A DNA stretch of 64,000 nt from an uncultured beta proteobacterium (GCA_963741125.1 CAVUGY010000017.1:35786-99785), one strand, 5' to 3'. Positions 1 through 64,000 are shown, numbered from the stretch's first letter. Notes: a model not told the origin generated them from the letters alone. Made by a program: numbers and translations.

Positions 1-122
1 GCCTTCATCGGTTGGTGAAAGCCCGCCGCGAATTCGCCCTTGCCCAGCATCGGCCACGCCTTCGCAACGGCCGTCACGAGCGGTGCTGACGCGGGGCGGT
101 TAACTAGCCGGACACCCGCAAC

Positions 123-2370
123 ATGGGCGGATCGAAGCGAATTCGTGCGGCGGCTGCGGCCTGCTCTCGGCGCTGCTGCCGGCTGCGACAACAGCCCGAA
201 CCCCAAGGGCGCGAGGCGACGAACACGATGTTTATCGCGTTTCAGGAGCGCTCGCCGCGGCACCTCGACCCGACCGCCTCGTACTCGCTCAACGAAGTCC
301 CGTACATGTACGCGGTCTACGAGCCGCCCTACGCCTACCACTACCTGAAGCGCCCGTACGAGCTGGTGCCCAAGTCGGCCGAGGAGCTCGCGACGCCGCA
401 CTATCTCGACAAGGACGGCAAGCGCCTGCCCGATGACGCTCCCGGCGAACTGGTGGCCGAAAGCGAGTACGACGTCCATATCAGGCCGGGCATGCTCTAC
501 GCGCCGCACCCGGCATTCGCGAAGGATGCGCAAGGGCGACTACCTGTACCACGCGTTGACCGAGGCGCAAACGCGCGACAAGCATTCGCCGCTCGACTTC
601 GAGGACACCGGCACGCGCGAGCTGGTCGCCGACGACTTCGTCTACGCGCTCAAGCGCCACGCCACGCCGCGCATCGAGGCGCCGATCTACGGCATCTTCT
701 CCGAGTACGTGATCGGCCTGAAGGATTACGGCAAGCTGATCCGCGACGAAGACCTGAAGCTGCGCAAGGGCCTGGACCCGGCCGCGCTGGACAAACCCTT
801 CCTCGACTTTCGAAAGTATCCGCTGGCCGGCGCCGTGGCGCTCGACAAGCACACGTTCCGTATCCGCATCAAGGGCAAGTACCCGCAGTGGAAGTACTGG
901 ATGACGATGACCTTCACTGCGCCGGTGCCGTGGGAGGCCGACAAGTTCTATGCCCAGCCGGGCATGGCCAAGAACAGCCTGACGCTCGATGTGTGGCCGG
1001 TCGGTACCGGGCCGTTCATGGCTGGTCGAGTACGACCCGGATCGCCGCCACGTGCTGGTGCGCAACCCGAACTACCAGCGGCGCCACCTACCCGTGCGAG
1101 GGCATGCCCGGCGACAAGGAGGCGGGACTGCTCGCCGACTGCGGCAAGAAGACGCCGTTCATCGACAAGCTGGTGTTCAACATCGAGAAGGACAAGACGC
1201 CGCTGCGCGCCAAGTTCACGCAGGGCTTTCTCGACGTGCCCGAGATCGAGCGCACCGACTGGGGGCCTGACTTCCTGGCCGATGCGAACGACTCCGACGA
1301 GGTGCGCAAGCGATTCGACGAGCGGGGCATGCGCTTCCCGCAAAGCATCGAGCCGCAGAACTGGTACCTCGGCTTCAACTGGCTCGACCCGGTGGTCGGC
1401 AAGGGCGACACGCCGGCGCAGCAGGCGAAGAACCGCAAGCTGCGCCAGGCGCTGTCGATCGCGATCGACTGGGAGGAAGGCTACGGGCGCGTGTTCACGC
1501 AGAAGGCCGGCGAGGCGGCGCATGGGCCGCTGCCGGGTGGGCATGTTCGGCTCGCGCCACGGCACGCTCGAGGGCATGAACCCGGTGACGCACAAGCTGG
1601 TGGACGGGCGAGTCGTGCGCCGCTCGATCGACGAGGCCAAGGCGCTTGCTGGCCGAGGCCGGCTACCCCGACGGTCGCGATGCCAAGACCGGCAAGCCGC
1701 TGGTGCTGAACTACGACTACCAGCGCGTGCCAACGCCGGAATTCCGGGCCGAGCTCGACTGGATGGTCAAGCAGTTCGCGAAGCTCAACGTGCAGCTCGA
1801 GATCCGCGCCACCGACTACAACCAGTTCCAGGACAAGATGCTCAAGGGCAAGCAGCAGATCTTCTGGTGGGGCTGGTTCGCCGACTACCCGGACGCCGAG
1901 AACTTTCTGTTCCTGTTCTACGGCCCGAACTCGAAGGCGAAGTTCGAGGGCGAGAACACCGCGAACTACGACAACCCCGAGTACGACCGACGCTACAAGC
2001 AACTCGCGCTGCTCGACGACGGCCCGGCCAAGCAGAAGGCTGATCGACGAGATGGTCGACATCCTGCGCAAGGATGCGCCGTGGGCATTCGGCTACTTCC
2101 CGTATTCGGCGCGGCGCCTACCAGCAATGGGTGGGCAACGCGAAGTACGGCCTGTTCACCAACGACCGCGCGCTGTACTACAAGATCGACGCGTCGTTGC
2201 GCACGCGCCAGCAGGCCGAGTGGAACCCGCCGCACTACTGGCCGCTGGGGCTGTTGGCGCTGGCGAGTCTTGCGTTCGTCTGGCGTCGCACGGCGCGGCT
2301 TCGTGGCGCGCGAGCGCAAGACGGCTCTGCACGCAGACCGCGACGGCGACCGCAGGCGGCAAGCACCTGA
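123..2370 (+). CDS. ABC transporter periplasmic substrate-binding protein, family 5 (peptide/microcin; YejA-like lipoprotein); reading frame broken by at least 6 frameshifts
   Basis: Translation pieces across three frames (123.., 433.., 989.., 1646.., 2052.., 2074..) concatenate into one YejA/OppA-like protein: FIAFQERSPRHLDP..YSLNEVPYMYAVYEPPYAYHYLKRPYELVP, DYLYHALTEAQTRDKHSPLDFEDTG, FWWGWFADYPDAENFLFLFYGPNS. A possible lipobox ...GAAAGC is upstream in another frame. Confidence 0.6.
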
Positions 2371-2373
2371 GCC

Positions 2374-61440: not shown

Positions 61441-61458
61441 ATTCCTGAAAGCCCGACC

Positions 61459-63290
61459 ATGACCCGACCAGATCCGCAACATCGCCATCATCGCCCACGT
61501 CGACCACGGCAAGACCACGCTGGTCGACCAGCTGCTGCGCCAGAGCGGCACCTTCCGCGAGCAACGAGAAGGTGGCCGAGCGCGTGATGGACAGCAACGA
61601 CCTCGAGCGCGAGCGCGGCATCACGATCCTGGCCAAGAACTGCGCCGTCGAGTGGAAGGGCACGCACATCAACATCGTCGACACGCCCGGCCACGCCGAC
61701 TTCGGCGGCGAGGTCGAGCGCGTGCTGTCGATGGTCGACGGCGTGCTGCTGCTGGTCGACGCCGTCGAAGGCCCGATGCCGCAGACGCGCTTCGTGACCA
61801 AGAAGGCGCTGGCGCTGGGCCTGAAGCCGATCGTCGTCGTCAACAAGGTCGACCGCCCCGGCGCGCGCCCCGACTACGTGATCAACGCCACCTTCGACCT
61901 GTTCGACAAGCTCGGCGCCACCGAGGCGCAGCTCGACTTCCCGGTCATCTACGCCTCGGGCCTGAACGGCTGGGCGACGCTCGAGCAGGGCGTGGTCGGC
62001 ACCGACCTGGCGCCGCTGTTCGACGCCATCCTGGAGCACGTGCCGGCGCACGACGGCGCGCCCGACGCGCCGCTGCAGCTGCAGATCTGCTCGCTCGACT
62101 ACTCGACCTACGTCGGCCGCATCGGCATCGGCCGCATCAACCAGGGCACCTTGAAGCCGATGCAGGACGTGGCGCGTCTACAGCGGCCCCGACGGCGACG
62201 CCGCTCAAGGCCCGCGTCAACCAGGTGCTGACGTTCGAGGGCCTGGAGCGCCAGCAGGCCGACCGAGGCCGGCCCGGGCGACATCGTGCTGATCAACGGC
62301 ATCGAAGACATCGGCATCGGCGTCACGCTGACCGACCTCGAGAACCCGCTGCCGCTGCCGATGCTGCAAGGTCGACGAGCCGACGCTGACGATGAACTTC
62401 TGCGTCAACAACTCGCCGCTGGCCGGCCGCGAAGGCAAGTTCGTCACCAGCCGCCAGATCTGCGGACCGGCTCGAGCGCGAGCTGCAGAGCAACGTCGCG
62501 CTGCGCGTGCAAGGACACCGACGAAGACGGCATCTTCGAGGTCTCGGGCCGCGGCGAGCTGCACCTGACGATCCTGCTCGAGAACATGCGCCGCGAAGGC
62601 TACGAGCTGGCGGTGTCGCAAGCCGCGCGTGGTGTTCCACGAGGTCGAACGGCGAACGCCACGAGCCGATCGAGCTGGTGACCGCCGACGTCGAAGACCA
62701 GCACCAGGGCGCGCGTGATGCAGGCGCTCGGCGAGCGCAAGGCCGAGCTGGTCAACATGGAGCCCGACGGCCGCGGCCGCGTGCGCCTCGAGTACCGCAT
62801 CCCGGCGCGCGGCCTGATCGGCTTCTCGAACGAGTTCCTGAACCTGACGCGCGGCACCGGCCTGATCAGCAACATCTTCGACGGCTACGAGGCCGTACAA
62901 GGGCGAGATCGACGGGCGCAAGAACGGCGTGCTGATCAGCCAGGACGACGGCGAGATCGTGACCTACGCGCTGGGCAAGCTCGACGACCGCGGCCGCATG
63001 TTCGTGCAGCGCCGGCGACCCGGTGTACGAAGGCATGATCGTCGGCATCCACAGCCGCGACAACGACCTGGTGGTCAACGCGGTGCGCGGCAAGCAGCTG
63101 ACCAACTTCCGCGTCTCGCGGCAAGGAAGACGCGATCAAGATCACGCCGCCGATCGAGCTGACGCTGGAGTACGCGGTCGAGTTCATCGCCGACGACGAG
63201 CTGGTCGAGATCACGCCCAAGTCGATCCGCCTGCGCAAGCGCCACCTGAAGGAGCACGACCGCAAGCGTGCGAGCCGCGAAGCGGCATGA
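61459..63290 (+). CDS. typA: Translational GTPase TypA/BipA; frameshifted (start region, about 62180-62500, about 62640-63120)
   Basis: ..[18 protein letters not shown].. (garbled at the start), ..[93 protein letters not shown]..; C-term ..[26 protein letters not shown]. Confidence 0.85.
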
Positions 63291-64000
63291 CGCACCGCAG
63301 GGCGGTGGCCCTGATGATCGTCTGCACGCTGATGTGGAGCATCGCCGGCGTCGTCACGCGCCAGCTCGACGCGGCGCGCAGCTTCGAGGTCACGTTCTGG
63401 CGCAGCGTGTTCAACGCCGCTGGCGCTGTGCGATCGCGCTGCTGGCCATGCGCGGCGCCGCGGCGCTGTGGCGAGACATGCGCCGCGGCGGCGTCGCGCT
63501 GTGGGTCTCGGGCCTGTGCTGGGCGGTGATGTTCACCGCCTTCATGGTCGCGCTGACGCTGACCACGGTGGCCAACGTGCTGGTCACGATGGCCATGGCG
63601 CCGCTGGTCACGGCGCTGTTCGCGCGCGTCTTCCTGCAGCCACCGGCTGCCGGCGCGCACCTGGGTCGCGATCGCGCTGGCCGGCGCTCGGCATCGCCTG
63701 GATGTTCGGGCGCCAGGCGCTGGACAGCGGCGGCTCGATGACCGGCACGCTGGTCGCGCTCGGCGTGCCGATGGCCGCCGCCGCCAACTGGACGCTGCTG
63801 CAGCACCTGCACCAACGCCATGCCGCCGACGCGCGCATCGAAGAGCCACAGATGCTGCCCGCCGTGCTGCTGGGTGCCGCGATGTCGGCCGCGGTCGCCT
63901 TGCCGCTGGCGTTGCCGCTCTCGGCCAGCGCGCACGATTTGTCCTGGCTGGCACTGCTCGGCGTGGTGCAACTGGCCGTGCCGTGCCTGATCGTCGTGCG
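63290..64000 (+). CDS. EamA/DMT-family transporter (partial at window end), frameshifted
   Basis: [44 protein letters not shown]..; ..LWVSGLCWAVMFTAFMVALTLTTVANVLVTMAMAPLVTALFARVFL.. (frame 63268). Confidence 0.5.

Follow-up and report, generated by a model that had tools for sequence, protein, structure and literature searches.

The analysed window covers 64,000 nt of a contig that is deposited in NCBI/ENA with a length of 99,785 nt. The window derives from a soil lineage of the Burkholderiales whose closest relatives are Microflora Danica (MFD) long-read MAGs. It leads from a yej-like ABC transporter operon and two TonB-dependent receptors across a block of about 30 genes to a run of genes that includes fabI, nusA, infB and typA (Table 1). 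The gene identities agree with those of a preliminary description of the same DNA, which had reported that many of these genes, essential ones among them, are broken by frameshifts.

Table 1. Genes and features of the window with their frame-shifting events (coordinates in nt from the first base of the window).
Feature	Position	Strand	Events and remarks
yejA/yejB/yejE/yejF-like ABC transporter operon (block A)	109..6660	+	~23 events between 215 and 6438, almost all +1; aligned to intact ORFs of L093/L106
TonB-dependent receptor 1	7038..9951	+	clean 7038-9615; -1 at 9616 (T lost in ACTTGG), +1 at ~9770, +1 at ~9921
TonB-dependent receptor 2	10149..13076	+	~3-5 net +1 shifts (~11030, ~11700, 11978); references distant (41-44% identity)
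Clean block, ~31 kb, ~30 genes	11979..42980	.	single-frame alignments to L087, L090, L002, L004; full-length Pfam coverage; includes adh_short, adk, kdsB, lpxK, exbBD, xseA, M16 peptidase, acyl-CoA dehydrogenase, APH, aminotransferase, pepA, sugar ABC transporter
pepA (Peptidase_M17) event	35175..35175	+	extra C in CTCG[C]GGC; splits profile exactly at positions 207/209
GH31 glycoside hydrolase	42090..44457	+	+1 at 42981, 43198, 43235, 43872; corrected protein spans GH31 TIM-barrel profile 1-328/328
Hydrolase-like gene, downstream of GH31	44428..45469	+	+1 at 44737
SRAP-domain gene	46419..47103	+	+1 at 46728
SPFH/Band_7 gene	48434..49422	-	5 +1 events; first event of dense block D at 48605
NfeD-like gene	49376..49927	-	5 events: four +1, one -1
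Orn/Lys/Arg decarboxylase (OKR_DC)	49940..52220	+	15 events: fourteen +1, one +2
FAD-dependent oxidoreductase	52384..54164	+	~6-7 events
fabI (enoyl-ACP reductase)	54137..54904	-	3-4 +1 events
rimP	55086..55625	+	3 events; alignment uncertain
nusA	55643..57127	+	9 events, all +1; full domain coverage once corrected
infB	57180..60028	+	~28-30 events, among them +1 at 58593 and 58651
rbfA	60095..60484	+	5 events: +1 at 60179, 60234, 60435, 60451; +2 at 60272
truB	60492..61429	+	11-13 events
typA/bipA	61459..63287	+	14 events, all +1; corrected protein exactly 605 aa
EamA/DMT transporter gene, cut by window end	63290..64000	+	3-4 events

Frameshift-aware protein-to-DNA dynamic-programming alignment to intact orthologues revealed ~145 frame-shifting events in the 64 kb, carried by the intervals 215-6438, 9616-11978, 42981-46728 and 48605-64000. 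This alignment replaced a simple count of blastn gaps against L001 as a test for good and bad blocks: the latter gave 3.2-4.7 gap openings per kb everywhere and does not separate the blocks because alignment noise dominates at 86-91% identity. Reference ORFs were filtered on third-codon-position GC, as an unfiltered greedy choice selected long antisense ORFs of the GC-rich references and produced false stops. Aligner events at gene ends (2262, 13948, 15421, 16742, 17778, 35959, 36399 and 36436) were discarded because they lie in non-coding upstream extensions of the stop-to-stop reference ORFs. The density amounts to ~7 events per kb in 48605-64000 and peaks at 10 per kb. The 31 kb of 11979-42980 hold a single event, the +1 in pepA, versus ~110 in the 15.4-kb dense block (P ~1e-51 for at most 1 of 111 events falling in the former rather than the latter). 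With an index of dispersion of 5.0 in 1-kb bins, the clustering far exceeds chance, and the lesions form contiguous blocks rather than the genome-wide spread expected of genome decay or pseudogenisation. The block-wise pattern proposed in the preliminary description is thereby borne out, with breaks at 1-6.4, 9.6-12, 43-46.7 and 48.6-64 kb, as is its statement that 13.1-41 kb is intact save for one shift in pepA. Its range of 1-10 frameshifts per broken gene is too low in view of infB (~28-30), the decarboxylase (15) and typA (14). Both TonB-dependent receptors are indeed shifted, as it held, but receptor 1 is free of events over 7038-9615 and affected only by the three near its 3' end.

Nearly all events point in the same direction. 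The protein-to-DNA alignment yields 113 '+1', 15 '+2', 5 '-1' and 4 '-2' events (p ~1e-27 for the skew of '+1' versus '-1'), and a comparison over 12.5 kb with the DNA of the closest relative, L169 (90% identity), yields 101 extra single bases, 10 extra dinucleotides and 19 missing single bases (p ~1e-14); for nusA (9) and typA (14), the counts from both alignments match exactly. The insertions are spread evenly over the three codon phases (22/23/22). The inserted base equals a neighbour in 15 of 101 cases (15%), versus 49% expected if random, so that these are not homopolymer extensions, and it is unlike either neighbour in the other 86. G[c]G and C[g]C are the most frequent contexts; overall, the contexts are diverse and non-repetitive, and no slippery or homopolymeric motif was found at the insertion sites. 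A fixed miscall of CTCGGGC as CTCGCGGC was considered and rejected: 41 intact copies of the heptamer persist, 13 of them in the dense block.

Given this nearly uniform direction, the description as compensating indel pairs, proposed for infB, rbfA and rimP, is wrong in general. In infB, the out-of-frame stretch at ~58590-58660 is bounded by two +1 events, at 58593 and 58651, which flank 58594-58650; the reading passes through frames 3, 1 and 2 and is not restored. In rbfA (~60225-60275), the frame does return, though by a +1 at 60234 followed by a +2 at 60272, a net +3, rather than by an opposed pair. For rimP (~55335-55385), a +1 at 55344 is followed by events that read as -2 in an alignment that is uncertain there. 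The frame returns only at net +3, and such returns were mistaken for compensating pairs in the preliminary description.

Once the frame is corrected, the encoded proteins are full length and conserved, and the lesions consist of small indels only. The ~9,000 corrected codons contain no in-frame stop; the lone stop symbol, at 2370, precedes the yejB start. Corrected TypA aligns end to end (605/605 aa, 100% coverage) with 120 homologues at 91-93% identity, and NusA and GH31 regain complete Pfam domain coverage. Identities to the proteins of L169 are 94.5% for NusA, 94.2% for FabI and 92.9% for TypA, a conservation at odds with relaxed selection. TypA carries three private changes at invariant columns, two of them beside insertion sites, and an excess of substitution errors is not demonstrable in the dense block. 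No intact copy 100% identical to frame-corrected TypA turned up for the same population; the best match of that search was 93%.

In L169 (ENA ERZ25039524 contig_25805, MFD04651.bin.1.139), an MFD nanopore MAG, fabI, rimP, nusA, infB, rbfA, truB, typA and the DMT gene are all intact and in the same order, and the same fabI-to-DMT genes are likewise intact and in this order in the JGI contig L084. L003, L007, L018 and L084 show no events, or at most two doubtful ones (truB of L007). In turn, two contigs from the same ENA series as the window (ERZ250395xx), which represent different lineages, carry the same signature mostly at other positions: +1 accounts for 14 of 20 events in L081 and for 23 of 32 in L082. 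Another JGI contig, L083, shows the opposite bias (-1 in 15 of 22 events). The signature is thus found in same-series contigs at mostly different positions, alongside clean relatives (L169, L003, L084). Within typA, the window and L082 have 4 insertion hot spots in common versus 0.6 expected (p = 0.004); they fall in the same codons with different inserted bases, and the overlap shows that the errors have a context-dependent component.

The broken reading frames are present in the public record itself. The deposited 99,785-nt contig itself yields exactly the truncated NusA (164 aa), FabI (142 aa), RimP (101 aa) and YejF (77 and 465 aa, from ORFs at 4838-5068 and 5043-6437), as well as the proteins of the clean block; the errors therefore belong to the public sequence and were not added to the window. 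These truncated ORFs have already entered public protein collections as singleton clusters, and the 101-aa RimP clusters with intact 183-aa RimP proteins. The truncated 893-aa ORF of receptor 1 (P0121) recurs identically in the Logan k-mer assembly of run ERR12035933, where it is followed by a 93-aa ORF at 2855-3136. This second ORF corresponds exactly to the window once a single base is taken out near 9770 and another near 9921, whereas the unedited window gives 56 aa. In this comparison, made by gene coordinates and covering 3 of the ~145 events, the Logan contig keeps the -1 at 9616, and its coordinates fit a sequence free of the +1 at ~9770 and ~9921. The Logan contig passes both sites; if Logan retains only k-mers seen at least twice, at least two reads would lack those insertions. 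The existence of such reads would not be explained by simple two-read tie-breaking. Look-ups of further exact ORFs of the window in read-level assemblies gave no match, which carries no weight, as the tool leaves out the window's own contig.

We conclude, with a probability of roughly 0.93, that the frameshifts arose as errors in the consensus of a metagenome contig built from long reads and are not mutations of the organism. The insertion bias, the lack of nonsense codons, the full-length conserved proteins and the intact closest relative support the preference for an artefact already voiced in the preliminary description, and the signature of the same-series contigs and the Logan assembly, apparently without two of the insertions, fit it as well. 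The ERR run accession, together with the relatives, makes it probable that the contig arose in the same way as the MFD MAGs. The MFD long-read pipeline is nanopore-only with Flye and Medaka 1.8.0, and its authors noted a reduced coding density in low-coverage MAGs (PMC12313526); nanopore consensus indels fragment gene calls below ~40x coverage (PMC9262707). The presumed procedure would comprise R10.4.1 nanopore reads, Guppy SUP basecalling, metaFlye and a single Medaka round, short reads not being used for polishing. The consensus keeps spurious extra bases in some stretches, at up to ~0.7-0.9% of positions, and is essentially error-free in others. In stretches with very few or conflicting reads, the polisher may keep a base even when just part of the reads carry it, because a missing base is the more frequent kind of read error; deletions would then be repaired while read insertions survive. 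The predicted outcome is an insertion-only spectrum with a density that steps at the 2.4 to 31 kb scale. With every extra base the frame moves by +1, and a third one restores it. The step-like change between blocks of 2.4 to 31 kb may hint at a tie between error density and low read depth.

That the genes are real pseudogenes of a host-restricted or otherwise decaying lineage, which would have inactivated nusA, infB, fabI, typA and others, is very improbable. The frameshifts do stand in the deposited sequence, and the -1 at 9616 recurs in the independent Logan assembly of run ERR12035933; furthermore, host-restricted organisms such as Mycobacterium leprae, Sodalis and young endosymbionts likewise accumulate many frameshifted genes, including ones expected to be essential. 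The excess of 113 insertions over 5 deletions, however, is opposite to the deletional bias reportedly established for bacterial pseudogenes by Mira, Ochman and Moran in 2001. No nonsense codon occurs even though 2.9% of the possible substitutions in these genes create one, the corrected proteins remain 93-94% identical to those of the nearest relative, and up to ~30 events strike one essential gene versus 1 in the neighbouring 31 kb. Unlike host-restricted decay, the window shows neither an AT shift (its GC content is 67%) nor an IS expansion, and it has the gene set of a free-living organism. Its events keep to blocks of a single contig, some of them appear to be missing from read-derived sequence, and unrelated contigs from the same assembly series bear the same signature. 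As L169 and L084 are intact, a second gene copy need not be invoked either. The decaying lineage named as the alternative in the preliminary description is thus contradicted on every feature tested. A strict +1 direction together with perfect conservation of the corrected proteins would also be expected if the cell decoded through real extra bases by programmed +1 ribosomal frameshifting, transcriptional slippage or RNA editing. Programmed frameshifting or slippage would be expected at one conserved slippery or homopolymeric site per gene that is common to orthologues, whereas we find up to ~30 sites per gene, at up to 10 per kb, in diverse contexts that lack a slippery or homopolymeric motif, and none in L169 and L084. 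The events are also all but missing from the 31-kb clean block, two appear to be missing from the read-derived assembly, and further contigs of the sequencing project show the pattern too, at positions that mostly differ; we therefore regard recoding as practically negligible.

A different origin of the artefact deserves more weight, although we consider it rather doubtful: instead of low depth, strain heterogeneity may have been collapsed, with reads of two or more coexisting close strains on one draft and a polisher emitting both alleles of variable sites in tandem, which would leave a +1 unlike its neighbour. The 86 of 101 inserted bases that differ from both neighbours agree with this, as do many sites with the appearance of both synonymous alleles (CTC-G-AAG, TCG-C-AAG, GTG-C-GAG), the hot spots in common with L082 and the start of the dense block just past a strain-variable island at 45.5-47.9 kb. 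The even phases speak against it: strain SNPs are rare between codon positions 1 and 2, yet one third of the insertions fall there. On account of this uniformity, the idea that each insertion doubles a synonymous strain allele was rejected as a general rule. Moreover, corrected TypA has only ~1 clear private substitution.

As consensus errors, the frameshifts resemble the familiar problem of nanopore-only assemblies and MAGs addressed by IDEEL, proovframe and Homopolish (PMC9262707): there, too, genes are split by 1-2-nt indels only, corrected ORFs are full length and conserved, errors concentrate in parts of contigs, and cleanly assembled relatives are intact while sister contigs of the same series are affected. 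The classical nanopore error, however, is a homopolymer deletion, whereas the window contains almost exclusively single-base insertions that avoid runs (101 insertions versus 19 deletions), which makes it an atypical variant. Under-polished PacBio CLR assemblies are likewise insertion-dominated and not homopolymer-specific; unlike these, the relatives and probably the window contig derive from ONT R10.4.1 reads with Flye and Medaka (PMC12313526), and we saw no sign of PacBio use for the window contig. Tentatively, and at less than even odds, a few events may be genuine, the best candidate being the -1 at 9616 that truncates receptor 1, and the remainder may reflect a systematic, under-described failure of Flye and Medaka on R10.4.1 metagenomes that is insertion-only, run-avoiding and block-wise. 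If true, public collections would thereby acquire singleton 'proteins' that are truncated or fused; examples are P0001, an IF-2/RbfA fusion, and P0370, a NusA fragment of 164 aa.

The value of these observations lies in data hygiene and not in biology. The +1-only, non-homopolymer, block-wise signature is beyond the reach of homopolymer-focused polishers and is found by a simple frameshift-aware check against orthologues. On this contig, any call of a pseudogene, of a disrupted operon or of a 'missing essential gene' in 1-6.4, 9.6-12 and 43-64 kb would be wrong.

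The coding phase along the window (67% GC, with a gene order matching that of Burkholderiales metagenome-assembled genomes, MAGs) was followed with a frame plot of third-codon-position GC: In 1-6.5 kb, 9.6-12 kb, and 42-64 kb, it switches at intervals of a few hundred bases, and it is steady in between. Individual events were mapped by aligning orthologous proteins to the window with a frameshift-allowing dynamic-programming aligner. Intact orthologues were taken from L084 (a collinear JGI contig), L087 (an Ideonella MAG), L002 and L004 (Illumina MAGs), metagenome loci for the yej operon, and L169, the remainder of the contig of the closest relative, a Microflora Danica (MFD) long-read MAG. 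In total, approximately 145 frame-shifting events were found.

Frame-shifting events in the window, by feature
Feature	Position	Events
yejABEF	215-6438	~23
TonB-dependent receptor 1, 3' end	9616, ~9770, ~9921	3
TonB-dependent receptor 2	up to 11978	3-5
pepA	35175	1
GH31 + neighbouring hydrolase + SRAP gene	42981-46728	4 + 1 + 1
Dense block	48605 to window end	~110
SPFH (dense block)		5
NfeD (dense block)		5
Decarboxylase (dense block)		15
FAD oxidoreductase (dense block)		6-7
fabI (dense block)		3-4
rimP (dense block)		3
nusA (dense block)		9
infB (dense block)		28-30
rbfA (dense block)		5
truB (dense block)		11-13
typA (dense block)		14
DMT gene (dense block)		3-4

Between 11979 and 42980 (31 kb) there is a single event, and the genes located there show full-length Pfam coverage; if events arose at a uniform rate, no more than 1 of 111 would fall into this clean block rather than the 15.4-kb dense block with P ~1e-51. 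This bears out both the block-wise clustering noted in the preliminary description and its statement that 13.1-41 kb (~30 genes) is intact apart from one shift in pepA. Its view that both TonB-dependent receptors are broken holds insofar as both are shifted, but the first 2.6 kb of receptor 1 are free of events. The clean block also contains, on the + strand at 26996-29296, an ORF of up to 766 aa that stays in one coding phase and has no Pfam match; its product is an uncharacterised protein. At 45450-47900 lies a lower-GC island (~63%) carrying a receiver-domain protein (45515-46345) and the SRAP gene. Locus L003 lacks this island, and in L001, the other part of the contig of the closest relative, another segment of 4.8 kb takes its place; the region varies between strains and is situated between the sparse and dense error blocks.

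The spectrum of events is markedly one-directional. Protein-level alignment yielded 113 +1 events (one extra base), 15 +2, 5 -1, and 4 -2, and a DNA-level comparison with L169 over 51.5-64 kb (~90% identity) gave 101 additional single bases and 10 additional dinucleotides in the window versus 19 missing single bases, the per-gene counts of both levels agreeing exactly for nusA (9) and typA (14). The compensating insertion/deletion pairs proposed earlier are thus not what the window contains: In infB, the supposedly restored stretch (58594-58650) lies between two +1 insertions, so that the frame runs 3, 1, 2 without restoration, and in rbfA the frame is indeed restored (net +3), but by two insertions, +1 at 60234 and +2 at 60272. 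In only 15 of 101 cases is the inserted base identical to an adjacent one, compared with 49% for random insertion into this sequence (p ~1e-12), so the errors do not concern homopolymer length. G[c]G and C[g]C are the most frequent contexts, and the insertions are spread evenly over the codon phases (22/23/22). One context, CTCG[C]GGC, recurs as an extra C in CTCGGGC at four independent frameshift sites (35171, 50457, 57419, and 63115), among them the only frameshift of the clean block; since 41 intact CTCGGGC copies remain, this insertion is not deterministic.

Once the extra bases are removed, the encoded proteins are normal. The ~9,000 corrected codons contain no in-frame stop, a single stop symbol at 2370 being located upstream of the yejB start, and 2.9% of the possible substitutions in the affected genes would produce one. 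Corrected TypA has exactly 605 aa and aligns end to end with 120 TypA proteins at 91-93% identity; two of its three private changes in otherwise invariant columns adjoin insertion sites. Identities to L169 after correction are 94.5% (NusA), 94.2% (FabI), and 92.9% (TypA), domain coverage is complete in corrected GH31 and NusA, and the two parts of pepA meet exactly at positions 207/209 of the Peptidase_M17 profile.

Comparison with other contigs shows how the signature is distributed. L169, from ENA assembly ERZ25039524, is intact for fabI, rimP, nusA, infB (939 aa), rbfA, truB, typA, and the DMT gene. L081 (ERZ25039547) and L082 (ERZ25039459), relatives from the same assembly series, are riddled with frameshifts biased toward +1 (14/20 and 23/32 events), whereas the related long-read contig L083 (JGI 3300044699, Ga0418691_01147) is shifted in the same genes but mainly in the other direction (-1 in 15 of 22 events), apparently owing to another kind of long-read error; Illumina-derived loci and L084 show no events or at most two doubtful ones (truB of L007). 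Consequently, the signature tracks data source rather than lineage. The majority of sites are not shared by the window and L082, but there is a modest excess of common hot spots (in typA, 4 versus 0.6 expected; p = 0.004), with different inserted bases, which points to a context-dependent technical component. L001, the best match across 30.5-48.6 kb (86-91% nucleotide identity), has a frameshift of its own: The gene at 31795-32907 is intact in the window, and its orthologue in this GTDB representative MAG (contig_25805 of MFD04651.bin.1.139; ~18613-19736, minus strand) is divided between two ORFs that lie in different frames.

Four proteins encoded in the clean part (a sugar ABC transporter ATPase, two permeases, and a binding protein) and the truncated receptor 1 ORF (P0121) are exact products of a 99,785-nt NCBI/ENA contig, which makes the window part of a publicly deposited sequence. 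The truncated products of the dense block (NusA, 164 aa; FabI, 142 aa; RimP, 101 aa) and those of YejF (77 + 465 aa) are likewise exact products of this record, and the insertions therefore belong to the deposited sequence. The RimP fragment groups at ≥90% identity with intact 183-aa RimP from other contigs. Public protein collections contain frameshift-made chimeras and fragments of such contigs, mostly as singleton clusters (P0001-P0008; P0370-P0372, P0379, P0380), for example IF-2 ORFs with an RbfA Pfam match and a 164-aa "NusA".

Read-derived evidence comes from the Logan k-mer assembly of run ERR12035933, the comparison covering gene coordinates only and 3 of the ~145 events. A 3,209-nt Logan contig carries the identical 893-aa truncated receptor ORF, followed at 2855-3136 by a 93-aa ORF that corresponds to the window from the ATG at 9668 to the natural stop of the receptor with two bases fewer. 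The 93-aa ORF is reproduced when single bases near 9770 and 9921 are removed from the window, which gives 56 aa when left unmodified; the coordinates of the Logan contig thus fit a sequence without these two +1 insertions. The -1 at 9616 (9605-9625; one T lost in ACTTGG) is the only tested event present there and may represent either genuine pseudogenisation or an error that recurs systematically in the reads.

We therefore regard the frameshifts as spurious single-base insertions in the consensus, with a probability of roughly 0.93; the one-directional spectrum, the normal corrected proteins, and the dependence on data source uphold the earlier preference for an artefact over biology. FLO-PRO114M flow cells use R10.4.1 chemistry. 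The MFD long-read study employed these flow cells with Guppy SUP basecalling and one round of Medaka 1.8.0 polishing without short-read polishing, and remarked on low coding density in low-coverage MAGs (PMC12313526). Its long reads are deposited at ENA (PRJEB58634) and its short reads at NCBI (PMC12313526), so the ERR accession would fit nanopore data. Gene calls in nanopore assemblies below ~40x coverage are known to be broken up by consensus indels (PMC9262707). Affected blocks may have had few or conflicting supporting reads, and a polisher that has learned to view deletions as the more frequent read error would retain bases present in only some reads, thereby mending read deletions but leaving read insertions; blocks measuring 2.4 to 31 kb would be consistent with read support that changes in steps over the length of the contig.

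A rival technical cause would be collapsed strain heterogeneity, with both alleles written out in tandem; it would explain the inserted bases unlike their neighbours and the recurring hot spots, but the uniform codon phase speaks against it, and we consider it unlikely. Real pseudogenisation of the affected genes is contradicted on every feature tested and highly improbable; biological recoding of the extra bases fails in the same manner and has a still more negligible chance of being correct. The observation is confirmed in substance and carries no biological novelty; what is unusual is the error mode, which consists of insertions only, avoids runs, and occurs in blocks.
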